Assembly (NCBI GenBank): GCA_041675045.1
Contig: JBAYUP010000001.1
Span: 24,094 to 88,093 of the forward strand
Origin: Minisyncoccota bacterium
Lineage (GTDB): Bacteria > Patescibacteriota > Minisyncoccia > Phycocordibacterales > UBA9973
DNA: 64,000 bases
Direction of reading: 5' to 3'
The notes below the pieces were generated by a model. That model worked only from the letters and a program-made list of their open reading frames with translations. It did no database searches and was not told the DNA's origin. Of this stretch, positions 7,430 through 62,108 are shown one piece after another (positions within the stretch are counted from its first letter, which is position 1; every line of letters starts with the position of its first letter). The position numbers and the translations under genes were made by a program.

Positions 7430-7486
7430 AAAATTTAGTAAAAGTTAAAAAAATAAATAGAATAAATTTATATTACTTGATGCTCG

Positions 7487-7535
7487 CCCCGTAGGAAGTG
7501 AAATGTGCATTCGACATTACACTTTCCTACTGGGG
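7487..7535. repeat. Hairpin repeat copy 1: CCCCGTAGGAAGTG ... CACTTTCCTACTGGGG with a nested inner hairpin
   Basis: An imperfect long hairpin. A second copy with the same CCCC..AGGAA / TTCCTAC.GGGG arms is at 7902-7951. Confidence 0.45.
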
Positions 7536-7584
7536 TTCCAAGAAATAATTTTCATATATATAGAATATCATACCATCGGCAATG

Positions 7585-7613
7585 TTGACGAAACAAATAA
7601 TATATTATAGAAT
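7585..7613 (+). promoter_or_regulatory. Sigma70-like promoter TTGACG - 17 nt - TAGAAT
   Basis: Near-consensus -35 and -10 hexamers with a 17-nt spacer, about 25 nt upstream of the small ORF at 7639. Confidence 0.5.
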
Positions 7614-7638
7614 AATCTCAAACTAAAAACCCTTTGGC

Positions 7639-7821
7639 ATGAACAAGGCAAAGAAAAGTAGGAAAATTTCCTGGTTGAGTGCATCAAAAATTCATCCGTT
7701 TATCCTCGATTCTGAATATGACATACATAGTATGACTAATAGGGAACTGGATCTATTTATGATGTCGCTCACATGGTCAGCAAAAAATATCGGCGGTAAG
7801 CTGGTAGAATCAAACAATTAA
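7639..7821 (+). CDS. Small hypothetical protein (60 aa)
   Basis: It lies between a near-consensus promoter and a clean terminator, so it is a real transcription unit; whether it codes for a protein is uncertain. Confidence 0.35.
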   Translation: MNKAKKSRKISWLSASKIHPFILDSEYDIHSMTNRELDLFMMSLTWSAKNIGGKLVESNN

Positions 7822-7841
7822 CTGTATCTAAATACTCAGAA

Positions 7842-7870
7842 GGCGCTTTCTTTTCAGAAAGCGCCTTTTA
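7842..7870 (+). terminator. Terminator GGCGCTTTC-TTTTCA-GAAAGCGCC then TTTT
   Basis: Perfect 9-bp stem plus T-run. Confidence 0.7.
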
Positions 7871-7884
7871 ATTTAATTTTTGTT

Positions 7885-7999
7885 GTGAAATTTCTTATGT
7901 ACCCCACAGGAAATAAATACTCACTGCGAGCCCTCGTGATTTCCTACGGGGCAAGCATCTCTTAATTTACTTTTCACGACCGTGAAATTTCTTATGTAC
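7885..7999. repeat. 18-bp direct repeat GTGAAATTTCTTATGTAC (7885-7902 and 7982-7999) flanking hairpin copy 2 and the xer stop codon
   Basis: The second copy encodes the C-terminus of the recombinase (..VHKKFHG..). The first copy is a non-coding duplicate about 80 bp downstream, with further imperfect similarity extending about 12 more bp. Confidence 0.6.
7902..7951. repeat. Hairpin repeat copy 2: CCCCACAGGAAAT ... ATTTCCTACGGGG with nested CGAG-CCC-TCG
   Basis: Same architecture as the copy at 7487-7535. Confidence 0.45.
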
Positions 8000-12681: not shown

Positions 12682-12801
12682 ATCCCGTTAGAGACCGCGG
12701 TCACGGTCTTAATACCACGGGTACAAATAAGACATTAACACAATAACTACAATGCGCAGGTATTTCACATGAATGTGATCGCGACCTGCCTCTAACGGGA
12801 T
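12682..12801 (+). promoter_or_regulatory. Inverted-repeat leader element, copy A: 5' arm ATCCCGTTAGAG (12682-12693), 3' arm CTCTAACGGGAT (12790-12801); the ATG at 12800 overlaps the 3' arm
   Basis: Perfect 12-bp inverted repeat around ~96 bp. The arms extend imperfectly (ACCGCGGTC ... GATCGCGACCTGC). Three further copies are in this window. Confidence 0.7.
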
Positions 12802-38066: not shown

Positions 38067-38216
38067 ATCCCGTTAGAGATTTTTTATGTCATATATGTAA
38101 CGGGAGGTGCATTAGCATACTTATTAAAATTATTGTATTTATTTAAAATGTATACGCCCCATGCAAAAATTGGATAATTTTAGAAAAAAAAACGATGGGG
38201 CTATCTCTAACGGGAT
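38067..38216 (+). promoter_or_regulatory. Inverted-repeat leader element, copy B: 5' arm ATCCCGTTAGAGAT (38067-38080), 3' arm ATCTCTAACGGGAT (38203-38216); the ATG at 38215 overlaps the 3' arm
   Basis: Perfect 14-bp inverted repeat around ~122 bp of AT-rich sequence. An internal partial arm GTAACGGGAGG lies at 38097-38107. Confidence 0.7.
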
Positions 38217-41142
38217 GAAGAAAATTCTACCGTATATATTTTTTATTGCGATATGTGTGAACATATTCACGCCTTTTTCTGCCATCCAATCAACTCCTCT
38301 CGTTGCTGAGGCAGCTCTTGATACAACCCTTGCTGGATATCAAAATGCATTCAACAAAATTAAAAGTGGTGTCACCCTAAATCAATCAGCAGTAACGTCA
38401 GCTGGTGGGATTATTGCTGATTTTCATATTGTTCTTGATACAGGATTAGCGTTGGGGGCAAACACAGAAGATATATATAATCACGTAGAAGCTCAAGGTA
38501 GAAATTTTGGAATCGGAGACACCGGCACTAATTTATACAGCACAAATGCTTTTGTTCTTGTTGTGAAAGACGCACTAACTGGACAAGTGGGTTTTGTGGA
38601 CGTCACACCTCGACTAATGATTGATGGTTCAAATAAAAGCTTGGCGGACAAAAGACCAAATGGGCCAGTCCGAAGCGAAACGGATGTAAGTATCAGCACA
38701 AGTCAATTCCCCCAGCTTACTCCTGGTAAAGACTACACCGCGACACTTTACTACCAAGCAGCTGGTGGAATAGGAAGTGGAGAGGGTAAAGGATATGGTG
38801 AATCAATACCAGGGTTATCTTCAAACAAAGACTACTTTGCAATTACCAGCCCGACCCCCTTCAAGACAGCAACCCCAACAAGTGGTGGCGGGACAGGAGT
38901 TGAAGGAACGCTCGGTACTGGTAAATCGACAGTAGTTGATTCCCAGGCTTCTCTTGATCCAATGCCAGGGTGTTCGATACTCGGAATGGGAGACGAGAAT
39001 GGATCAATTGTTGGATGCGCAGCTCAAATAATATATTACGTTATCTTTGTTCCAACATCATATCTCTTTGCGCTTGCCGGTCAATTTTTCGACTGGACAT
39101 TTGCATACTCTATTAGCGATGAATCATATCGAATTCCTTTTGTTGTTCAGGGGTGGGGAATCCTCCGTGATTTCGTTAACATGTTCTTTATCTTTGTTTT
39201 GCTCTATATTGCATTTCGTACAATACTCGGTGTTCATGGTGCAAAAACAAAAGACTTAATTATAAATGTCATCATTATTGGTCTTTTAATAAACTTTAGT
39301 TTATTTACAACACAAGTTATTGTTGATGCTTCAAATATTTTAGCGAGAGTATTCTATAGCGATGATGCCATTAGACTTACAGAGGGTCAGAATCGTGGAG
39401 CACTTGATGCAGCAGGAACAACAGCGGGTCCAAATGGGGAAATCCAATTATCTGCTGCCCTCATAGATAAGGTCAACCCCCAAAATCTTATCTTAAATTC
39501 AAAAAAGGTTAATGACTTCGGAACAACAGGAAATGATGTCGCCCAAAATAATAACGAAGATAGCGCAAACAGCATTGGAGCTGGGTCATTTATCTTAATC
39601 ACTATCCTTGCTATCGCTATTAATATCGTTGGCCTAATAACATTCCTCTCTGTTGGACTTATTTTCGTTGCTCGCGTAATCGGACTTTGGTTTGCGATGA
39701 TTTTTGCACCTATTGCATTCTTTAGTTATACCGTGCCGAGTCTAGCGAATAACAAAATATTTGGCATCCATCACTGGATTGAAGAGCTTTTAAAAATGGC
39801 ATTCTTGGCACCAATATTTATATTCTTCTTGTATCTTATCTTGCAATTCCTTGAGGGTCTTAATTTTATAAACCAAGGAGACCAAACAGGGGTGAAGTGG
39901 GTTATCGCTATCGTTGTACCGTTTATTTTCATAATGGTTCTTTTGCAACAAGCAAAAAGTATCGCACAAAAACTCTCAGGGGAACTCGGACAAAGAATTA
40001 CAGGGGCGCTCTCCACTGTTGGTGGTGTTGGACTTGGACTTGCAACAGGTGGCGCTGCCCTTGCAATGAGAGGGTCAGTTGGTAGAATCATGAATAAGCT
40101 AAACACAAATGACACACTAAATAATTGGGCCTCTGGAAAAACAGCGAGTGGTAAGGCAATGAGCGGAGGGCTAGGCTCATGGGCACTTCAAAGAGCGGCT
40201 ATTCTAGGAAAGAAAACTACTACTGCGGGAGCTAAGGGAAGTTTTGATTTCCGACAAACAGGATTAGCTGGTGGTATGTCTGGTGCACTTGGTGTCGATA
40301 TGGGCAAATACACAAACTATGTCGGACTTGGGACAAAAAGTGGGCTTGGCGGATATGCAAATGCACAGGCAAAAAAGATTGAGAAAGAAGAAACATTTGC
40401 AAAAAGTCTGGGATACGACCACGCAAAAGATCATGCCTTACAAGAAAAAATTGATGCTCGTAAAAAAGCAATTACTGATGCTGAAAAAATTCGTGATATG
40501 GCAAAAGCAACACTTACTGCAGATCCAAATAATGCTGAATCCAAAAAATCTTACGCGACAGCTTTGGCAAATGTTACCGCACTTAAATCTGGAGGCATGT
40601 ATGTAAATGATGCTGGAATTAAGCTAAACATAAAAGAAAGTCTCGCTGATTTTGAAAAAGCACAGGCAACTAACAAAACTGGTCGTGAACGAGAATTTTA
40701 TCTCTATAAACGACGACAATCTGGAAAAATCTACAACGAGAGTCATGGATTAAAACGTGACAGTGAAGATAACATAACTTCATTTGGCCACCCAGTATCA
40801 AGTGGAGCACAAGCAGGTAAACAATTTGCCAAGGAATTTGTTGAAGGATTTGGAAAAGGAGCAGTTGCAGGTGGTGCTGTGGGTATGTGGGCTGGACCCG
40901 CAGGTGCAGTAGCAGGTGCTGGTGCTGGTGGATTATTTATGGCAGTTCGAAATGTAGTTAATTACAGTGGAACAACCAATAGAAAGATTGGAGAAGCCCA
41001 CAATCCAAAACCAGGAAAATTTGAAGATTCTTATAAGCCAGGTTCAGCGCCGGCTCCGTCTGGGGGACACGACGATCACGGAGCTGGGCATGACGATCAT
41101 GGGGGAGGACACGACGATCACGGAGGTGGAGGGCATCACTAA
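38215..41142 (+). CDS. Large polytopic membrane protein (975 aa): signal peptide, soluble N-domain, at least 8 transmembrane helices, Gly/Ala-rich and His-rich C-terminus; candidate VirB6/TrbL/PrgH-like channel subunit
   Basis: Topology and position upstream of the VirB3-like and VirB4 genes. Start moved to the ATG at 38215 (MKKILPYIFFIAI signal peptide) because the six-frame start at 38161 lies inside the leader element. Assignment by synteny and topology only. Confidence 0.5.
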   Translation: MKKILPYIFFIAICVNIFTPFSAIQSTPLVAEAALDTTLAGYQNAFNKIKSGVTLNQSAVTSAGGIIADFHIVLDTGLALGANTEDIYNHVEAQGRNFGIGDTGTNLYSTNAFVLVVKDALTGQVGFVDVTPRLMIDGSNKSLADKRPNGPVRSETDVSISTSQFPQLTPGKDYTATLYYQAAGGIGSGEGKGYGESIPGLSSNKDYFAITSPTPFKTATPTSGGGTGVEGTLGTGKSTVVDSQASLDPMPGCSILGMGDENGSIVGCAAQIIYYVIFVPTSYLFALAGQFFDWTFAYSISDESYRIPFVVQGWGILRDFVNMFFIFVLLYIAFRTILGVHGAKTKDLIINVIIIGLLINFSLFTTQVIVDASNILARVFYSDDAIRLTEGQNRGALDAAGTTAGPNGEIQLSAALIDKVNPQNLILNSKKVNDFGTTGNDVAQNNNEDSANSIGAGSFILITILAIAINIVGLITFLSVGLIFVARVIGLWFAMIFAPIAFFSYTVPSLANNKIFGIHHWIEELLKMAFLAPIFIFFLYLILQFLEGLNFINQGDQTGVKWVIAIVVPFIFIMVLLQQAKSIAQKLSGELGQRITGALSTVGGVGLGLATGGAALAMRGSVGRIMNKLNTNDTLNNWASGKTASGKAMSGGLGSWALQRAAILGKKTTTAGAKGSFDFRQTGLAGGMSGALGVDMGKYTNYVGLGTKSGLGGYANAQAKKIEKEETFAKSLGYDHAKDHALQEKIDARKKAITDAEKIRDMAKATLTADPNNAESKKSYATALANVTALKSGGMYVNDAGIKLNIKESLADFEKAQATNKTGREREFYLYKRRQSGKIYNESHGLKRDSEDNITSFGHPVSSGAQAGKQFAKEFVEGFGKGAVAGGAVGMWAGPAGAVAGAGAGGLFMAVRNVVNYSGTTNRKIGEAHNPKPGKFEDSYKPGSAPAPSGGHDDHGAGHDDHGGGHDDHGGGGHH
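41064..41139 (+). repeat. Tandem 21-bp coding repeat (CACGACGATCACGGAGNTGGG x3) encoding GHDDHGx repeats at the C-terminus of the VirB6-like protein
   Basis: Seen directly in the sequence: ...GGHDDHGAGHDDHGGGHDDHGGGGHH*. Confidence 0.7.
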
Positions 41143-41959: not shown

Positions 41960-42370
41960 ATGCAATTCAAAGTTCCACAATTCATAGATATTGAGGACAA
42001 ACTCTTTGGACCATTTACCTTCCGTCAGTTTGCCTATCTGGCAGGTGGCGCTGGGATGATATTTGTTCTCTATAAAGTCCTTCCATTTTGGATTGCTGTT
42101 ATTTTGATAATTCCCGTTGCTGGACTTGCACTTGCACTTACATTTTATAGAATCAACAACAAGCCTTTTATTTATTACTTACAAGCAGGTATTTCCTACG
42201 CTATCGGAGATAAATTATATGTATGGAAACAACGACTTGTAAAACCAACACTCAAAAAAGAAGAGCCCACTCCGACACCAAAAACAAATACCGTACCGAT
42301 GATGTCTGGAAGTAAACTTTCCGACCTTGCATGGAGTTTAGATGTAGAAACGAAAGAAAATAAAGAATAA
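41960..42370 (+). CDS. Small two-transmembrane-helix protein, VirB3/PrgI-like candidate
   Basis: 136 aa, two hydrophobic helices (FAYLAGGAGMIFVLYKVLPFWIAVILIIPVAGLALALTF), immediately upstream of VirB4 as in the conserved VirB3-VirB4 pair. Confidence 0.45.
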   Translation: MQFKVPQFIDIEDKLFGPFTFRQFAYLAGGAGMIFVLYKVLPFWIAVILIIPVAGLALALTFYRINNKPFIYYLQAGISYAIGDKLYVWKQRLVKPTLKKEEPTPTPKTNTVPMMSGSKLSDLAWSLDVETKENKE

Positions 42371-42451
42371 AAATGTTATACTTTATACTGTATCATTCAT
42401 CCATAATTAGTAACCTGCCTACCGGCAGGTAGGTTCGTAATTATTTTTCCT

Positions 42452-43090
42452 ATGGCACTAGACGCTCGAGCTACACAAGAATTTGTTCCAATCAAAGAAG
42501 TTCGCGATGGAATCATCGTCTTAAAAGACGGGGGACTGCGAGCTGTTTTGATTGCTTCTTCAATCAATCTATCTCTTAAATCATCAGACGAGCAAGTAGC
42601 GATCATTAATCAATTCCAGAATTTCTTAAACGGACTTGATTTCCCGACACAAATTGTTATTCAGTCACGACGTCTTGATATCCGACCATACCTATTGTTA
42701 CTTGAAAATCGCATCAAAGAACAGGTTGAGCCCCTTATAAAAATTCAAACTCGAGAATATATCAGTTTTATTCGTTCTTTTACAGACGAAGTAAACATCA
42801 TGACAAAAACATTCTTCGTTGTAGTGCCCTATACTCCAACAATCTTAAATACAGGGGGTGGGATAATCGACGGATTACTTGGTGGCAATAAACAGAAAAA
42901 TACTGGCAAACAAGGAGATGTCGCAGATTTTGAAGAAAAGAGATCTCAGCTTGATCAACGTGTTAACGTTATCACTGGTGGTCTTGGTGGTCTTGGTATT
43001 CGTAGTTCACAACTTAAAACAGAAGAGGTTGTTGAGTTATTCTACAAAACATTTAATCCTGGTGACATAAGTCAGGGTATTCAATTATAG
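42452..43090 (+). CDS. VirB4/TrbE/CagE family ATPase, N-terminal domain encoded as a separate ORF (212 aa)
   Basis: N-terminal pattern FVPIKEVRDGIIVLKDGGLRAVLIASSINLSLKS matches the characteristic VirB4 N-terminus (..DGSl.avl.v.G..f.l). Stop TAG at 43088-43090, followed by leader element C. Confidence 0.6.
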   Translation: MALDARATQEFVPIKEVRDGIIVLKDGGLRAVLIASSINLSLKSSDEQVAIINQFQNFLNGLDFPTQIVIQSRRLDIRPYLLLLENRIKEQVEPLIKIQTREYISFIRSFTDEVNIMTKTFFVVVPYTPTILNTGGGIIDGLLGGNKQKNTGKQGDVADFEEKRSQLDQRVNVITGGLGGLGIRSSQLKTEEVVELFYKTFNPGDISQGIQL

Positions 43091-43098
43091 GTATATGA

Positions 43099-43222
43099 AT
43101 CCCGTTAGAAGTCGCGAACGCGTTATAATATAATGGATAGAAGTAATATGAAAATAAACCCAACAATTAAAAAAATAATTTCAGTAAGCTGCGAAAAGAT
43201 CGCGCTCTACTTCTAACGGGAT
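43099..43222 (+). promoter_or_regulatory. Inverted-repeat leader element, copy C: 5' arm ATCCCGTTAGAAGT (43099-43112), 3' arm ACTTCTAACGGGAT (43209-43222); the ATG at 43221 overlaps the 3' arm
   Basis: Perfect 14-bp inverted repeat around ~96 bp, sitting exactly between the two VirB4 ORFs. TATAAT at 43124-43129 inside the element. Confidence 0.7.
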
Positions 43223-45062
43223 GAATATATTTTCATCATTTTTTGGCAAAAAAGAAACACAAACAACAGGACAATCTGGCCCGGCTGTTATGCCGGTACT
43301 TCCAACCGAAATCTACCGCGCAGCAACACTAGAACTGCAGGATATTATTGCACCTTCAGCTCTTCAAATTACGCCGAAGGCACTCAACCTGGGAGATAAA
43401 ATCACACGAACATTTTTCGTGATTTCCTATCCAAGATTTTTAACAGATAATTGGTTTTCACCAATTGTTAACCTTGATAAAGTTTTTGATGTATCAATTA
43501 ATATTCATCCTATTGAAACAGGGGATATTCTTCGCTCATTCCAGAAAAAGGTTGCTGAAGTACAAAGTCAAATTTCAATACGTGAATCAAAAGGTCTCGT
43601 TCGTGATCCAATGCTTGATACTGCATATCGCGATCTTGAAGCGCTTCGTGATAGCTTGATGCAAGCCCAAGAAAAAATGTTTGATGTTGGGTTATACATC
43701 ACCGTTTACGCCGACAATGATTCTGATTTATTTAAAATTGAAAGTGAAATCAAGTCATTACTCGAATCAAAGCTTGTTTATTTGAAACCAGCACTCTTCC
43801 AGCAAGGGGAGGCATTTAAAAGTGTTATTCCGCTCGGCATGGATATTCTTGGTATCCATCAAAAACTTAACACGGAGCCACTTTCAAGCTTGTTCCCATT
43901 TGTATCATTCGACCTTACTTCAGATAAAGGTATTTTGTATGGAGTAAATCGCCACAACTCAAGTTTGATTATTTTCGACCGCTTTTCACTTCCGAACTAT
44001 AATTCTATTACTTTTGCGACATCTGGTGCTGGTAAATCATATGCAACAAAACTTGAAGTTATCCGAACACTTATGTTTGATACTGAAGTAATTGTTATTG
44101 ACCCAGAACGCGAATATGAATATCTAGCTGAAGCAATGGGCGGAAGATATTTCAACATTGCTCTTTCTTCTGATCACCATATCAATCCATTTGATTTACC
44201 TATCCCAAGTCCTGATGAGACAGGAGCGGATGTGCTTCGCTCAAATACCATTAACCTTGTCGGACTATTCCGTATCATGCTTGGTGGGCTCACCCCAGAA
44301 GAAGATTCAATCATCGACCGTGCCATTACTGAAACATACGCGATGAAGGACATTACACCTAATTCCAACTTTGCAAACATTGAACCACCACTTCTTACTG
44401 ATTTTGAAATGGTTCTTGCTGGCATGGAGGGAAGTGAGTCAGTTATTCAACGTCTTGCGAAATACACTCGTGGGTCATGGTCATCATTCCTTAACCAGCC
44501 ATCAAACGTAGATATTAATAGAAAATTTGTTGTTTTCTCGGTACGCGATATGGAAGACGAACTGAAACCAGTGGCAATGTATATCGTAACTCACTATATC
44601 TGGAACGCTGTTCGCAAAAACATTAAAAAACGTCTCCTTGTGGTAGATGAGGCATGGTGGATGATGAAATCAGAAGACACTGCGTCGTTCCTTTATTCAA
44701 TCGCAAAACGAGGCCGAAAATATTACCTTGGACTTGCTACCATCACTCAAGACGTGGGTGACTTCATGAAAAGCCCGTATGGTATCCCGATTGTTACAAA
44801 CTCATCAATCCAGCTTCTACTAAAACAATCCCCATCAACAGTTGATACCCTCCAAAAAACCTTTAATTTAACAGACGAAGAGAAATACCTCCTCTTGGAA
44901 GCAAATGTAGGAGAGGGAATATTCTTTGCTGGTTTGAAACACGTAGCTGTTAAAACAGTTGCCTCATATACCGAAGATCAGATTATTACCTCTGACCCAT
45001 CTCAAATCCTAGCAATCAAAAAAGCTCGAGATGAACTCATTGCCTCTGGTGGTGTAAAATAG
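43221..45062 (+). CDS. VirB4/TrbE/CagE family type IV secretion ATPase, central and C-terminal ATPase portion (613 aa)
   Basis: Walker A FATSGAGKSYATK, Walker B LLVVDEAWWMM, conserved ..GLATITQD.. region. Together with 42452..43090 it totals 825 aa, the normal VirB4 length. Confidence 0.85.
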   Translation: MNIFSSFFGKKETQTTGQSGPAVMPVLPTEIYRAATLELQDIIAPSALQITPKALNLGDKITRTFFVISYPRFLTDNWFSPIVNLDKVFDVSINIHPIETGDILRSFQKKVAEVQSQISIRESKGLVRDPMLDTAYRDLEALRDSLMQAQEKMFDVGLYITVYADNDSDLFKIESEIKSLLESKLVYLKPALFQQGEAFKSVIPLGMDILGIHQKLNTEPLSSLFPFVSFDLTSDKGILYGVNRHNSSLIIFDRFSLPNYNSITFATSGAGKSYATKLEVIRTLMFDTEVIVIDPEREYEYLAEAMGGRYFNIALSSDHHINPFDLPIPSPDETGADVLRSNTINLVGLFRIMLGGLTPEEDSIIDRAITETYAMKDITPNSNFANIEPPLLTDFEMVLAGMEGSESVIQRLAKYTRGSWSSFLNQPSNVDINRKFVVFSVRDMEDELKPVAMYIVTHYIWNAVRKNIKKRLLVVDEAWWMMKSEDTASFLYSIAKRGRKYYLGLATITQDVGDFMKSPYGIPIVTNSSIQLLLKQSPSTVDTLQKTFNLTDEEKYLLLEANVGEGIFFAGLKHVAVKTVASYTEDQIITSDPSQILAIKKARDELIASGGVK

Positions 45063-56236: not shown

Positions 56237-57436
56237 ATGACTATGACAGAAGAAGATATACTACAAGACATAGTAACGCGCGGGGTTGCCAATATATACC
56301 CATCAAAGGGTTTTGTCGAGGCAAAAATACGTCGTGGCGAGAAGCTTACCATCTACCTTGGTATTGACCCAACGGGGCCTACTCTCCATTTAGGTAACGC
56401 CATTCCCATGAAAAAGCTCGCTGATTTCCAAAAGGCTGGCCACAAGGTAATTCTCCTTATGGGTGATTTTACCGCAATGATTGGTGACCCTACAGACAAA
56501 TCATCGGCTCGGGTACAGTTAACACACAAACAGGTTCTAGCTAACCTTAAAAATTACAAGAAACAAGCATCAAAACTTCTTTCTTTCTCAGGTAGAAATA
56601 AAGCAGAAATAAAATTTAATTCAAAATGGCTTGGCAAAATGAATTTTGCTGATGTTCTTTCTCTTGCTTCTCAAATGACGGTTCAACAAATGCTTGAACG
56701 CGATATGTTTGAACGACGTATCGAAGAAGGGAAACCAATTTTTATTCATGAATTTATGTATCCTCTGATGCAAGGATATGATTCTGTTGCAATGAATGTT
56801 GATGGGGAAGTTGGGGGCAATGACCAAACATTCAACATGCTCTGTGGTCGGGATCTTTTGAAATCAATGAAGAATAAAGAAAAGTTTGTTCTCACATTGA
56901 AACTTCTCGAAGACAGTACTGGTAAAAAAATGGGTAAAACTGAAGGGAACATGGTGGCACTTTCTGATACCCCCGAAGAAATGTATGGGAAGGTGATGAG
57001 CTGGTCTGACGGAATGATCATTCCTGGTTTTGAATTATGTACAAATGTTCCACTATCTGAAATTTTGGAAATATCTAAATCTCTCGAATCAAATTCAGTG
57101 AATCCGCGTGACATAAAAATGAAACTCGCTCGGACGTTGGTCGCCTTATATCACACTGAAGCAAAGGCCCAGAGTGCCGAAGAAAATTTTATCTCTACCT
57201 TTCAGAAACATGAAATACCAAGTGACATGATTGAGATAAAGATTCACGAAGGGGACCTCTTGGCAGATGTGTGCGTCACTCATAATGTAGTGAAATCAAA
57301 AACTGAATTTAATCGCTTTGTGGAAAATGGTGCGATTACCGATCTCCAGAAAAATGAAAAAATAAATGACCCTAAAATACGGGCCACAAAAACAGAATAT
57401 AAAATAGGAAAAACACGATTTATTCGTCTTGTATAA
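56237..57436 (+). CDS. tyrS: Tyrosine--tRNA ligase
   Basis: HIGH-type motif (..PTGPTLHLGN), KMSKS-type KMGKT, the ..FQKAGHKVILLMGDFTAMIGDPT pattern specific to TyrRS, and a C-terminal S4-like domain. Confidence 0.9.
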   Translation: MTMTEEDILQDIVTRGVANIYPSKGFVEAKIRRGEKLTIYLGIDPTGPTLHLGNAIPMKKLADFQKAGHKVILLMGDFTAMIGDPTDKSSARVQLTHKQVLANLKNYKKQASKLLSFSGRNKAEIKFNSKWLGKMNFADVLSLASQMTVQQMLERDMFERRIEEGKPIFIHEFMYPLMQGYDSVAMNVDGEVGGNDQTFNMLCGRDLLKSMKNKEKFVLTLKLLEDSTGKKMGKTEGNMVALSDTPEEMYGKVMSWSDGMIIPGFELCTNVPLSEILEISKSLESNSVNPRDIKMKLARTLVALYHTEAKAQSAEENFISTFQKHEIPSDMIEIKIHEGDLLADVCVTHNVVKSKTEFNRFVENGAITDLQKNEKINDPKIRATKTEYKIGKTRFIRLV

Positions 57437-57476
57437 CAAAACTCTCCTCGAGATATCTCGAGGAGAGTTTTGTTAT
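57437..57476. terminator. Bidirectional terminator CAAAACTCTCCTCGAG-ATAT-CTCGAGGAGAGTTTTG
   Basis: Perfect 16-bp stem between tyrS(+) and the minus-strand genes. Confidence 0.8.
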
Positions 57477-57658
57477 AGGTAGTCAGCGGTGCTTCCATCG
57501 AGACCAGCAAATTCTTCTGCAAGGTCATCATCTTCACCCGCAAAGACATCTTCTTCTGGGTCGTCTTCGAGAGCATCATCTCCCACATCACTTATGAGAT
57601 CTAATTCTTCTTCAGCGTCTAATTCAACACCTTTTATTTCTTCGTCGTCGTAGCTCAT
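57473..57658 (-). CDS. Small, extremely acidic hypothetical protein (61 aa, about 50% Asp/Glu)
   Basis: ORF only; its stop codon lies inside the terminator stem. Could be a real acidic protein or a chance ORF. Confidence 0.3.
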   Translation of the reverse strand: MSYDDEEIKGVELDAEEELDLISDVGDDALEDDPEEDVFAGEDDDLAEEFAGLDGSTADYL

Positions 57659-57758: not shown

Positions 57759-58241
57759 TTATTTTGTAAATCTTTCGCACGCAAGACACGTAAGCCCAAT
57801 AGCGATGGCATCAAGCTCATCATCAGAGCGAATTTGTTTTTCTATTTGTATAAGTTTTGGAACCATGTTCATAACCATTTGTTTATCTGCCTTACCGTAT
57901 CCAGTTACTGCGACCTTGATTTGCGGTGGTGTGTATTCGAAAATATCAAGACCATTACGTGATGCACTATAGATGATAACTCCACGTGCTTCAGATACTC
58001 CCATGACTGTCTTTTGATTGCTAGTAAAATAAAGTTTTTCGATGGCGAGTGCTACAGGGGTGTACTCTTGTATGATACGTTCTACTTCGGTACCAATTTG
58101 AGTGAGTCGCTCAGGGAAGGGAATCTTGGCTGATGTCTTAAAGCATTCTGAAAAAACTAGTATATCTTTTTGTTTCGGTTGGCGTTCGATAACTGCAACA
58201 CCAACACGTTCAAACCCAGGATCAATTGCAAGAAGTTTCAT
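57759..58241 (-). CDS. ruvC: Crossover junction endodeoxyribonuclease RuvC
   Basis: MKLLAIDPGFERVGVAV.. start and catalytic acidic residues in a ~160-aa frame. Confidence 0.9.
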   Translation of the reverse strand: MKLLAIDPGFERVGVAVIERQPKQKDILVFSECFKTSAKIPFPERLTQIGTEVERIIQEYTPVALAIEKLYFTSNQKTVMGVSEARGVIIYSASRNGLDIFEYTPPQIKVAVTGYGKADKQMVMNMVPKLIQIEKQIRSDDELDAIAIGLTCLACERFTK

Positions 58242-58858: not shown

Positions 58859-59842
58859 TTTTGGGTCAAACCCTAAATGTTCATATCCTTTATTTGTGAC
58901 AGTTCGTCCACGAGGGCCACGTTCTAAGAGTCCAAGTTGAATGAGGTACGGCTCAATAACTTCTTCAATGGTTGCCTCTTCTTCACTTGTGGCAGCCGCG
59001 ATTGTTTTCAGTCCCACTGGCCCGCCATTAAATTTTTCGATGATTACATGGAGCACTCGACGGTCTGATGCAGAAAGTCCAAGTTCGTCTATCTCAAGAA
59101 GTGCGAGAGCTTTTTTTACTGATTCTTTGGTGAGTGGTGTTTTGTGGACCTGTGCGTAATCACGACAACGCTTTAAGAAATAGTTTGCAGTACGTGGAGT
59201 AAAGCGTGCACGAGAAGCAATTTCTTCAAGTGCGTGGTCTTCAATCTCTACGCCAAGAATTTGAGCCGAGCGAGCGAGAATTTTTTTGATTTCATCGTGT
59301 GTATAAAATTCAAGACGAAACACACCCCCAGAGAATCGTGATCGAAGGGGGGAGGAGAGAAGTGCAATTCGTGTTGTTGCTGCGATGAGGGTAAACGGTG
59401 GAAGTTCTAATTGTATTGTACGTGCAGATGGTCCCTTGCCGATAATAATATCGAGCACACCACTCTCCATAGCAGGGTAGAGAACCTCTTCTACCATTTT
59501 ATTAAGACGATGAATCTCGTCGATAAAGACAATATCTCCCGGAGCTAAGTTTGTCAGGATTGAAGCAAGGTCTCCAACTTTTTCGATTGCTGGGCCAGAG
59601 GTTATTTTGATTTGCCGACGAGTTTCGTGGGCGATAAGGTGGGCGAGAGTTGTTTTTCCTAGTCCTGGGGGACCGTAAAATAATATATGTTCAGCAGGGT
59701 GGGCACGTTCTTCTGCTGCCGTGAGGAGGATTTTGAGGTTTGCTTTGATATTTTCCTGTCCAATATATTCATCCCAAATGTTTGGACGCAATGTTTGGTC
59801 GAGGAAGCCCTCGTCTTTGGTTGTAGGTGTGGTACTTGACAT
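58856..59842 (-). CDS. ruvB: Holliday junction branch-migration ATPase RuvB
   Basis: Walker A GPPGLGKTTLA, Walker B FIDEIHRL, sensor motifs, and a winged-helix C-terminus. Confidence 0.95.
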   Translation of the reverse strand: MSSTTPTTKDEGFLDQTLRPNIWDEYIGQENIKANLKILLTAAEERAHPAEHILFYGPPGLGKTTLAHLIAHETRRQIKITSGPAIEKVGDLASILTNLAPGDIVFIDEIHRLNKMVEEVLYPAMESGVLDIIIGKGPSARTIQLELPPFTLIAATTRIALLSSPLRSRFSGGVFRLEFYTHDEIKKILARSAQILGVEIEDHALEEIASRARFTPRTANYFLKRCRDYAQVHKTPLTKESVKKALALLEIDELGLSASDRRVLHVIIEKFNGGPVGLKTIAAATSEEEATIEEVIEPYLIQLGLLERGPRGRTVTNKGYEHLGFDPK

Positions 59843-59870: not shown

Positions 59871-60246
59871 AGAAATTACATACAGTTCAATTATAGCATC
59901 AAGCGCGAAGAGGACATAAATCTCTAAGCAATCGGCCACGTGCTCTATATGCGTGCGTAGGACGCCCTGGTTTCTATTTATATTTACTGGGACTATCCTG
60001 TAATCGTATATTACTTTAGTTACGCATGTTCCTAAAGGATTGTTTAGAGATTTATGTTCTCTTTTAAAGGAAAGAACGGTCCCATCCCGGTTTGATTTGT
60101 TGTTTTACCGGAATAATTATTTAGCCATAATGACTGTTAGCAAAACTTTCCTTACTTCACCATATTCTGTGTGGGGGTTTGATGAATCGTGAAGAAAAGC
60201 AGAACAGGCCTCGCAACTTCGGTTGCGGGGCTTCTTTATTTTTTAT
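59871..60246 (+). ncRNA. Candidate non-coding RNA (~375 nt) defined by the consensus promoter and a UUCG-tetraloop terminator; class not identified
   Basis: No ORF longer than about 13 codons starts downstream of the promoter. Hairpins inside include CCGGTTTGATTTGTTGTTTTACCGG. An AGGAAAG motif is present, but no convincing RNase P P4, tmRNA tag or SRP domain IV match was found by eye. Confidence 0.4.
60208..60246. terminator. Terminator CCTCGCAAC-UUCG-GTTGCGGGG then CTTCTTTATTTTTT
   Basis: 9-bp stem with one G-U pair, a UUCG tetraloop and a U-rich tail on the plus strand. It could also serve pilB on the minus strand. Confidence 0.7.
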
Positions 60247-60266: not shown

Positions 60267-61967
60267 TTACTCCTCATAAAAATCAACCACACTACCGACT
60301 TCGTCGTAGGAGGTGATACCTTTTAGGATTTTGACGATGCCGTCTTCGCGCATGTCGAGGTATCCTTGGTGTGAAGCAATTTCTTTGATTTCTCGTTCAC
60401 TCGGATTGTTAGGAATTATTTTTTCAATATCAGCTGTTTTTATAATTGCTTCGAATACTCCAATTCGTCCTTTGTATCCTGTGTTATTACACTCACCACA
60501 ACCGACAGCCCCATATATTTTTAGGGAAGCATTTGTATCAACTCCATATTTTGAAAAATCTTTATTGTGAGCTATTGCGTTATCAGTTATTTTTTTGATT
60601 ATTTTAATTTGTTCTTCTGTGGCTGGGATTTCTTTTCTACAGTTGAGACAAAGTTTTCGAACAAGACGCTGGGCAATAGAAAGAGAGAGTGCTGATACCA
60701 ATATCTTTGGATTAACATCAAGATCAATCAAGCGCGGGATAACACCTGCTGCGTTGTTTGTGTGAAGTGTCGAGAAAACCAAGTGACCAGTGAGTGCGGA
60801 TTCAACTGCGATTTTTGCTGTTTCGCTATCACGAACTTCTCCCACCATGATCACATCAGGGTCTTGGCGGAGCGATGAACGCAAACCCTCGAGGAATGTA
60901 TACCCCTTCTCACTTTCTGTTTGTGTTTGGGTTATTCCTGGTAAGTGGTATTCAATAGGGTCTTCGATTGTGATTATTTTTATTTCAGGAGAATATATTT
61001 TCTGTAAGAACGAGTAGAGGGTTGTTGTTTTACCACTTCCTGTTGGACCAGTAAGGAGAATCATACCATTCGGCTTTTTAATCTCACGCATAAAAACTTC
61101 AAACAAAGATGGTTCAATACCAAGATCCTCAATCTTTACACGAATTGATTTCGGATTAAGAATACGCATAACGATAGACTCTCCGTATGCACCAGGAATA
61201 AGTGAGACACGCAAACTGATTTCCTCTTCGTCGAGGAATATACTAAAGCGCCCATCTTGAGCAACTGCCGAAGCAGTGATTTTGAGACCTGCTAAAAGTT
61301 TGATTCGAGAATTTAGGAATTTATGAATCGCTGGTGGTATCTCCATGATTTCATGTAGGATTCCATCGAGACGAAATCGTAACCGAACGGTATTTTCTTC
61401 TGGTTCAAAGTGTAGGTCAGAGGCGTTGATAGCAATGGCTCCAGCCAGTGCTATTTCGAGAATATGTGAAGTTGTGTGCGTTGCGTCTTGTTCAGCACGT
61501 TCAATAGCTTTTTTAATATCATCGATATTTTTAATATCCTTCATGATGTCTTTTAATGCAGAGCCAGAGACAGAGATAGCACCTGCTCGTGATTCAGATG
61601 CGTATGAAAGCTCGGTGTAGCGTTCCCATGCTTTCGCCAAGCTCGTGCCCGATGCCATGTAAAAGTGGGGGATGTATCCATGTTCAGTGAAATACTTTTT
61701 TAATTCAACGAGTGTTTCTGCGTGTGGAGCACGTACGGCAATATGTAAATCTTTACCAGTGAGTTTAAATGGTGCAATTCCGAGTGCCTCAGCTTCTTTT
61801 TGGGGGATAGAACGAAGAGCTTCGTTCTCGATAGGGATATTTGCGAGATTTATTGGTTGAACATCATACTTCGCTTCAGCGAGAATTTGCACCAAGTCCT
61901 CCTCTTCTTGTCTTTTGAAGTCATCGAGGTCTTTTTGTTGTTTCTCGTCATTAAAATGAATGGTCAT
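60267..61967 (-). CDS. pilB: GspE/PilB family secretion ATPase (type IV pilus assembly ATPase PilB-like)
   Basis: Walker A LLTGPTGSGKTTTLYS, Asp box, Walker B ..VIMVGEVRD.., His box ..GHLVFSTLHTN.., C-terminal tetracysteine CLNC...CGEC, and an N-terminal GspE_N-like domain. Confidence 0.9.
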   Translation of the reverse strand: MTIHFNDEKQQKDLDDFKRQEEEDLVQILAEAKYDVQPINLANIPIENEALRSIPQKEAEALGIAPFKLTGKDLHIAVRAPHAETLVELKKYFTEHGYIPHFYMASGTSLAKAWERYTELSYASESRAGAISVSGSALKDIMKDIKNIDDIKKAIERAEQDATHTTSHILEIALAGAIAINASDLHFEPEENTVRLRFRLDGILHEIMEIPPAIHKFLNSRIKLLAGLKITASAVAQDGRFSIFLDEEEISLRVSLIPGAYGESIVMRILNPKSIRVKIEDLGIEPSLFEVFMREIKKPNGMILLTGPTGSGKTTTLYSFLQKIYSPEIKIITIEDPIEYHLPGITQTQTESEKGYTFLEGLRSSLRQDPDVIMVGEVRDSETAKIAVESALTGHLVFSTLHTNNAAGVIPRLIDLDVNPKILVSALSLSIAQRLVRKLCLNCRKEIPATEEQIKIIKKITDNAIAHNKDFSKYGVDTNASLKIYGAVGCGECNNTGYKGRIGVFEAIIKTADIEKIIPNNPSEREIKEIASHQGYLDMREDGIVKILKGITSYDEVGSVVDFYEE

Positions 61968-62108
61968 CCCGTTTAGAAGCAGGTCGCGGTCAATAGAGCG
62001 ACACTACTTAAGTTATGTATAATTTTTGTATTTATATTGAACATTTTTTCTTATTTTTTAACTGCGACCACGCCTGCCTGCCGGCAAAGGCAGGGCTTCT
62101 AACGGGAG
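61965..62108 (-). promoter_or_regulatory. Inverted-repeat leader element, copy D (minus strand): 5' arm CTCCCGTTAGAAG (plus 62096-62108), 3' arm CTTCTAAACGGGAT (plus 61966-61979), abutting the pilB ATG at 61967-61965; a minus-strand TATAAT lies at 62127-62122
   Basis: Same arm sequence as copies A-C, with one extra A in the 3' arm. About 116 bp of interior with the hairpin GCCTGCC...GGCAGGC. GCGACCTG precedes the 3' arm as in copy A. Confidence 0.65.

Follow-up and report, generated by a model that had tools for sequence, protein, structure and literature searches.

The window analysed here is a 64,000-nucleotide (nt) stretch of DNA from a Minisyncoccota bacterium (assembly GCA_041675045.1, contig JBAYUP010000001.1, positions 24,094-88,093 of the forward strand), in which two open reading frames (ORFs) corresponding to the secretion ATPase VirB4 are separated by a short inverted-repeat element, element C. 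ORF1 (42452..43090, + strand, 212 residues, stop codon TAG at 43088-43090) encodes a TrsD-like or 'TraC-like' protein, homologous to the N-terminal domain of VirB4 but standing alone, and ORF2 (43221..45062, + strand, 613 residues) encodes the VirB4 ATPase proper with its Walker A (FATSGAGKSYATK) and Walker B (LLVVDEAWWMM) motifs. The ORF1-ORF2 junction carries element C, a 122-bp insertion of the form T-CCCGTTAGAAGT...ACTTCTAACGGG-A (43100..43221, + strand) that resembles a MITE (miniature inverted-repeat transposable element). Upstream, a PrgI/VirB3-like gene of 136 residues (41960..42370, + strand; Pfam PrgI, 3.1e-9) opens a conserved PrgI - TrsD-like - VirB4 block, and this order recurs in relatives and as trsC-trsD-trsE in plasmid pSK41. 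A terminator-like hairpin (42412-42435) lies between the PrgI-like gene and ORF1, directly upstream of the ORF1 ATG. A previous sequence-only reading of the locus had described the two ORFs, the 130-nt gap between them (43091-43220) with an inverted repeat inside it and the total length of 825 residues (212 + 613), all of which are reproduced here.

ORF2 contains the P-loop_TraG and AAA_10 domains (Pfam), matches the structure of the VirB4 C-terminal domain (PDB 4ag5, 1e-37) and scores 372 bits against the NCBIfam CD1110 VirB4-like model (cutoff 325 bits; 5.6e-111; model positions 183-732/752). Having both Walker motifs and a score above the curated cutoff it is a VirB4 ATPase, as had been proposed, and the ORF2 proteins of relatives align starting at residue 1. 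ORF1 had been taken for the N-terminal domain of VirB4, and here the domain assignment holds up while the Pfam model expected for it (CagE_TrbE_VirB) does not match: ORF1 has no Pfam match at E <= 0.01 in the local library, and its precomputed annotation is PF26593 'TraC-like'. On the NCBIfam VirB4_plasma model ORF1 covers positions 103-233/894 (2.4e-9) and ORF2 positions 292-885/894, placing the two collinearly as one VirB4 unit, and on the CD1110 model ORF1 covers positions 2-74. A sequence search of the PDB with a 41-sequence ORF1 profile returned nothing meaningful, hence a fold search was needed, and with an AlphaFold2 model of ORF1 (mean predicted local distance difference test score, pLDDT, 85.8) the top 14 Foldseek matches in the PDB are all R388 TrwK/VirB4 chains (TM-score, query, <= 0.60). 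A distant relative of 898 residues (P0193) carries both parts fused, with a Pro/Ala-rich linker between them. ORF1 and ORF2 are homologous to and collinear with full-length VirB4. Against the NCBIfam TrsD/TraD model (NF041427) ORF1 reaches E 5e-6 and 26.4 bits, below the curated cutoff of 200, while its position is that of TrsD/TraD, a gene of ~200 residues directly 5' of virB4 and 3' of a VirB3-like gene. Judged by its sequence, ORF1 is a remote TrsD homologue and not a member of that family by the curated rule.

The two-gene arrangement extends well beyond this genome. In 80 related Paceibacteria loci holding both ORFs, these are separate in every case, with -4 to 15 nt and no element between them at 64 of the 80 (typically caaTAAtATGgga), the genes abutting or overlapping in most relatives (ATGA, or TAA-N-ATG). 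Stand-alone proteins predominate among the ORF1 homologues (7928 in number; predominance counted on 50%-identity representatives), and the best 120 of the 7928 are all 212-219 residues long. Both the ORF1 and the ORF2 protein are 75-93% identical across species, which places both ORFs under purifying selection. Plasmid pSK41 encodes in succession a trsC-like gene, trsD (227 residues) and a 672-residue VirB4-like gene (TrsE), and here ORF2 aligns with TrsE starting in the N-terminal part (2e-29, from ORF2 residue 41 and TrsE residue 36) while the alignment of ORF1 with TrsD is end-to-end and collinear but weak (hhalign E 3.7e-4). TrsD has been described as a remote homologue of the VirB4 N-terminus that usually adjoins VirB4 in Patescibacteria, where it is the most abundant component of the type IV secretion system (T4SS) and VirB4-associated in 1,664 of 2,272 TrsD homologues (PMC12102498, 2025). 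A TrsD gene followed by a VirB4 gene is the ancestral and normal state, and earlier work has described it both in Patescibacteria and on plasmids of the pGO1/pSK41 type. Of the explanations offered by the sequence-only reading, a naturally two-part VirB4 is the right one, given the separate genes at all 80 loci, the stand-alone ORF1 homologues and TrsD/TrsE of pSK41; the element is no part of this two-part design, being absent from 64 of the 80 relatives and from the closest strains. The comparison of fused and split loci that had been called for finds the pair split at all 80 loci and the element absent from most of them. Ideas involving an intron, ribosomal bypass or a frameshift are dropped, the ORFs being separate genes in all relatives.

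Element C has the anatomy of an insertion. Its inverted repeat is formed by AUCCCGUUAGAAGU (43099-43112) pairing with ACUUCUAACGGGAU (43209-43222), a stem of 14 perfect base pairs continued by an inner helix, and a 152-nt stretch containing the element folds at -36.9 kcal/mol (z = -4.4; 0 of 200 shuffles as good). The element is flanked by a target duplication, TGAA, at 43096-43099 on the left and 43222-43225 on the right, and the final A of the element (43221) doubles as the first base of the ORF2 ATG. In the strains L081-L084 (4 contigs), whose ORF1 is 99% identical and whose flanking DNA is 93-96% identical, the element is absent and the empty site reads TAGgtatATGAGTATATTT (core TAGgtatATGAGT), where the window has TAGgtatATGAAT, the insert (CCCG...CGGG) and ATGAATATATTT. 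The empty site in strains this similar shows that element C is a very recent arrival, placed precisely on the start codon of virB4, and its terminal A probably rebuilds the ORF2 ATG. The suggestion that a mobile inverted-repeat element supplies a start codon thus survives in part: the element is mobile and probably contributes the A of the ATG, but it splits no gene and has caused no pseudogenisation. Among the 80 loci the ORF1-ORF2 junction holds a copy of 116-126 nt in 8 and a copy of 276 bp in 3, and all copies at the virB4 site have their interior in one and the same orientation.

The first ~36 nt of ORF2 (43221-43260 versus L081:3530-3570) differ at ~5 positions from the empty-site strains, compared with ~4% over the whole gene, while the window and L081 agree at all 30 nt upstream of the insertion. 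The N-terminal differences could be a co-conversion tract from the element donor or just a variable N-terminus. At another related locus the same junction (L065:6660-7141) contains an unrelated 480-nt insert that encodes a 118-residue 23S rRNA-intervening-sequence protein (PF05635, 9.5e-27) and has AT-rich inverted repeats on both sides.

Element C is one of four copies in the window (three on the + strand, one on the minus strand), each located at the start codon of a long ORF, the genes being unrelated. The + strand has three exact copies of the 12-mer TCTAACGGGATG, all of them with the reverse complement 100-140 nt upstream, and with <= 2 mismatches it gives 13 matches where 3.5 are expected (0 of 100 shuffles reached 13). 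Element A (12683..12800, +) separates the PNPase stop (12675) from the ATG (12800) of a 304-residue ORF, with flanks TGTA and TGGA. Element B (38068..38215, +) has arms of the GIY-YIG type (TCCCGTTAGAGAT...ATCTCTAACGGG) and ends on the ATG (38215) of a 975-residue secreted protein, with GTGAA on its left and ATGAA on its right (target duplication TGAA). Element D (61967..62107, minus strand; target duplication TGAC) sits on the start codon (ATG at 61967) of a gene for a PilB/GspE-type ATPase (61967..60267; Pfam T2SSE, 1.8e-115) and holds a 23-codon internal ORF that ends at the right-arm TAA. The elements in the window and at related loci often precede secretion or pilus genes. The C-terminus of the secreted protein downstream of element B contains three 21-nt repeats (41062-41129) that encode GHDDHG-type motifs.

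More than 140 further copies are found in other contigs from the CPR (Candidate Phyla Radiation), a pattern scan of metagenome contigs yielding at least 120 loci. The 150 copies used for target-duplication statistics share the structure N-CCCGTTAGA...TCTAACGGG-N', in which N/N' is T/A, as in element C, or C/G; the arms are 14 bp long and their outer 10 nt are identical in all copies. A 4-nt direct repeat flanks the element perfectly in 81/150 copies and with <= 1 mismatch in 110/150, and its sequence varies by site (TGAA, TGAC, TGGG, TGAG, TGCA). In T..A copies the repeat is TGNN, and a long ORF begins at offset 0 with an ATG completed by the final A. Where C..G copies lie at start codons the sequence is ATGAA-C...G-TGAA, giving the host gene a GTG start, and this reading favours a 4-bp duplication with the element supplying the first base of the start codon. 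Two length classes are seen, ~100-135 nt and 276 nt, and interiors are unconserved, forming 59 sequence clusters among the 60 diverged T..A copies at start codons that were used for frame statistics. With terminal inverted repeats, a target duplication that varies by site, and presence/absence polymorphism at orthologous sites, the element is MITE-like, though its targeting and its coding partner are both out of the ordinary.

The coding partner is found in the 276-bp form, which has the same ends and target duplications and is filled by an ORF for an 84-residue GIY-YIG protein of the UPF0213 type (Pfam GIY-YIG, 7e-17; PDB 1zg2, UPF0213 BH0048, 7.6e-9) that also matches a group I intron endonuclease model weakly. 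It is the only protein-coding form that we found with these ends; no longer form with the same ends, and none encoding a transposase, is present in 1.8 Mb of element-rich DNA. The protein has 994 homologues at E <= 1e-10, of which the best 120 are 83-92 residues long and 79-100% identical. The nuclease form occurs at no fewer than five host genes (at least virB4, prgI, a 352-residue gene, a 196-residue gene and a gene resembling a type IV coupling protein), always co-directional with the host gene, ending at the right-arm TAA 4-5 nt upstream of it, and the 92-residue variants begin in frame at the duplicated host ATG. Element B looks like a deletion derivative of this form. The GIY-YIG nuclease would mobilise both the short and the 276-bp forms. 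Other small GIY-YIG genes of CPR contigs (L180:2053-2271, L180:2691-2930 and L154:2561-2722) lie between unrelated inverted repeats (e.g. ACCCCGCACCACTTTT...AAAAGTGGTGCGGGGT), a hint of a wider class that pairs GIY-YIG genes with inverted repeats.

How an insertion at a start codon might leave the downstream gene expressed is suggested by the reading frames of the elements. In 41 of the 60 diverged copies the longest open frame is the one that ends at the right-arm TAA (TAA-CGGG-ATG; binomial p = 3e-8), with a median open length of 26 codons versus 10.5 and 15 in the other two frames; it is open from the duplicated ATG to this TAA in 21/60 copies, and length is 1 mod 3 in 33/60. In element C the left, duplicated start codon (ATG 43095-43097) opens a 12-codon ORF (MNPVRSRERVII; 43095..43133, +); its TAA stop (43131-43133) and the following ATG overlap in the sequence TAATG (43131-43135), and the internal 27-codon ORF that follows (MDRSNMKINPTIKKIISVSCEKIALYF; 43133..43216, +) ends at the TAA in the right arm (43214-43216), 4 nt before the ORF2 ATG. 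The window lacks Shine-Dalgarno sequences at the ~45 gene starts inspected, and many genes have a -10-like box (TAyAAT/TATACT) 6-8 nt before the ATG (e.g. 13749, 14161, 32373, 41960, 49790 on the minus strand and 58241 on the minus strand). Together these features make leaderless or coupled initiation likely, with leaderless or near-leaderless mRNAs common in the genome, and the lack of Shine-Dalgarno sequences makes either mode plausible at the element.

In the mechanism that we propose, the last base of the element (A, or G in the sister subfamily) and the duplicated TG would rebuild the start codon. Translation would begin at the original ATG on the left or at one inside the element, and ribosomes crossing the insert would melt the hairpin, terminate at the UAA and re-initiate 4 nt downstream at the rebuilt AUG. 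Two steps would be needed in copy C (ATG 43095 to TAATG 43131-43135, then TAA 43214 to ATG 43221), and through this relay VirB4 synthesis would stay coupled to TrsD synthesis. The insert may in this way be translated through and the ribosomes handed back to the host gene, the element being tolerated because it is translated. AG-armed copies share the motif M..NIK(I/F)NN(L/I)TKQ....CF. A conserved micropeptide was considered and rejected, interiors being unrelated across the 60 copies; we favour the view that the open frame counts, and not the peptide.

We consider the account as a whole quite probable: an ancestral two-gene VirB4 has received a recent MITE-like insertion at its second start codon, which would be mobilised by the GIY-YIG nuclease and tolerated by being translated. 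Several points weigh against parts of this account. The relay is read from frame statistics only, copy C needs the two-step version of it, and the C..G copies with GTG starts have no frame bias. Mismatches in the arms show no excess of sense-strand G-U (54) over A-C (66) in a crude and weakly informative alignment, so that the hairpin looks like a by-product of DNA inverted repeats rather than a selected RNA structure. Target duplications of 4 and 5 nt are not fully separable, since G-TAAA sites, which are C..G copies in 5' regions of lineages with Shine-Dalgarno sequences or on GTTGAC (-35-like) sequences, fit a 5-nt repeat, and part of the preference for start codons could come from harmless insertions having survived there instead of from targeting. 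As to the enzyme, no GIY-YIG gene lies within the 64-kb window, the 84-residue catalytic domain has no obvious DNA-binding part and could be a passenger or a homing nuclease, and GIY-YIG nucleases are not known to act as transposases.

It is this last group of points that bears on the most substantial alternative, in which the short elements are moved by another, unseen transposase and the GIY-YIG gene is a homing-endonuclease-like passenger in a subset of copies. GIY-YIG enzymes are known as homing or repair nucleases, and the missing window gene and the unrelated repeats around other small GIY-YIG genes in CPR contigs would fit such a passenger; on the other side, the 276-bp form has exactly the same ends and target duplications and is completely filled by the nuclease ORF, the element-rich DNA holds no longer, transposase-carrying form, and deletion derivatives of the nuclease form exist (e.g. 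element B). We regard a passenger as unlikely, though clearly in contention. A homing endonuclease gene in the ordinary sense is rejected, the nuclease form having at least five unrelated host genes and the short form many more, and target duplications being present. Less probable again is that the mRNA hairpin serves as an endonuclease site (e.g. for RNase III) that separates the cistrons and possibly leaves a near-leaderless virB4 mRNA, whether together with the relay or instead of it. The sequence-only reading had raised such a site, the long perfect 14-bp stem with its inner helix and the apparent use of leaderless or Shine-Dalgarno-less initiation are in keeping with it, and the Correia elements of Neisseria, bacterial MITEs whose hairpin is cut by RNase III in mRNA, offer a precedent. 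But cleavage within the stem would fail to put the AUG at the 5' end, the bias towards an open frame would be left unexplained and the arms lack an RNA-specific (G-U over A-C) pairing bias, making this an improbable account.

The inverted repeat might instead be a dedicated regulatory leader, riboswitch-like or a translational operator, that controls the ATPase half of VirB4 independently. Although the A and U of the start codon are buried in the stem, the fold is unusually stable by its z-score and the same motif precedes three other genes, a leader of this kind is very unlikely: the repeat is missing from 64 of 80 relatives and from strains whose ORF1 is 99% identical, target duplications flank it, its interior varies from copy to copy, its arms have no G-U over A-C bias, and its host genes are functionally unrelated. 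Rfam searches (gathering threshold over the whole window, and E-value mode over 42900-43400) gave no match for the element and returned tRNAs and noise only. A structured cis-regulatory RNA is rejected on this result together with the unconserved interior and the absence from most orthologous loci, and a group I/II intron on the same Rfam negative, a length of 122 nt that is too short and a position outside coding sequence. Short conserved inverted repeats upstream of several genes, some of them for surface or secretion proteins, would also suit an invertible promoter switch (inverton) toggling the downstream genes, but the empty sites, the target duplications, the constant interior orientation at virB4, the absence of a promoter-like site from the sense strand of element C and the lack of an associated recombinase reduce this to a negligible chance, and we dropped it. 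A promoter scan of element C detects no sense-strand promoter-like site inside it, with counts equal to shuffled expectation, and the idea that the element brings a promoter was dropped after that scan. Hardly worth entertaining, finally, is a single VirB4 gene cut in two by the element, as a pseudogene or a rescued split. The element does lie exactly between the halves and the distant 898-residue homologue is fused; yet all element-free relatives already have a stop and a separate ATG at this position, both ORFs are under purifying selection as judged from their identity across species, and pSK41 has the same split. The element-free split loci and the empty-site strains refute the notion that the element broke VirB4.

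Three further inverted repeats in the window were noted. A 34-nt inverted repeat (79% complementary) encloses ~440 nt of intergenic DNA at 7464-7974, with an ORF of ~60 codons and a terminator-like hairpin inside, and a separate hairpin at 7487-7535; this repeat is not of the CCCGTTAGA family. At 59908-60063 the arms of a 26-nt inverted repeat (92% complementary) stand 104 nt apart upstream of a minus-strand gene starting at 59842, and may belong to another MITE-like element or a leader. A perfect, spacerless 46-nt palindrome (23 + 23; 57432-57477) overlaps the end of an ORF stopping at 57436 and lies upstream of a minus-strand ORF (57759..58241).

These results remove a tempting misreading, in that VirB4 is here neither broken nor specially regulated. 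CPR genomes are tiny and densely packed, yet they host widespread small elements that land exactly on start codons and seem made for ribosomes to read across, and the inserts create spurious upstream ATGs and short ORFs that mislead gene callers and start-site annotation in these genomes. If the relay is true, the element would be a natural mobile element that preserves host expression by termination-restart coupling, and if the 84-residue GIY-YIG protein is the mobility enzyme, a nuclease class would be added to the known kinds of bacterial transposase. We found no description of the element in literature on GIY-YIG proteins with inverted repeats, on MITEs or on Patescibacteria, although this does not prove that none exists. 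There is a substantial chance, somewhat below even in our estimate, that the CCCGTTAGA elements form an undescribed class of transposable element, with the 84-residue GIY-YIG protein as their sole protein, aim at start codons, a 4-bp TGNN duplication, completion of ATG or GTG by the terminal A or G, and a TAA-CGGG-ATG restart. Such an element would use the promoter and start codon of the host gene to express its own ORF, and its insertions would be nearly silent in compact, Shine-Dalgarno-free CPR genomes.

Comparison with known systems places each component of the locus. The gene order is that of pGO1/pSK41 TrsD/TrsE and of the T4SS of Patescibacteria, a VirB3-like gene, a TrsD-like gene of ~210 residues and a VirB4 gene of ~610-670 residues, but here a mobile element, which PMC12102498 does not mention, lies between the genes, and ORF1 is far below the TrsD cutoff. 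The 84-residue protein has the GIY-YIG catalytic domain in common with free-standing and intron-borne homing endonucleases (I-TevI, Seg proteins) and with UPF0213/YhbQ; unlike these, it has only 84 residues and no obvious DNA-binding domain, lies between inverted repeats and target duplications, and occupies many unrelated sites with no intron (Rfam negative). The element as DNA resembles bacterial MITEs, Correia elements included, in a length of 100-150 bp, terminal inverted repeats, a short target duplication and many gene-adjacent copies, and shares with Correia elements co-transcription, mRNA hairpins and presence that varies between strains. It differs from them in standing exactly at start codons, in rebuilding the start with its last base, in the frame kept open through the insert, and in that its sole coding relative carries a GIY-YIG nuclease, not a DDE transposase. 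The palindromic elements of Rickettsia, which lie in frame within coding sequence and are incorporated into the protein, are likewise small, palindromic and selfish and tolerated via translation with their host genes, whereas the element described here lies before the start codon and its own frame ends 4 nt upstream.

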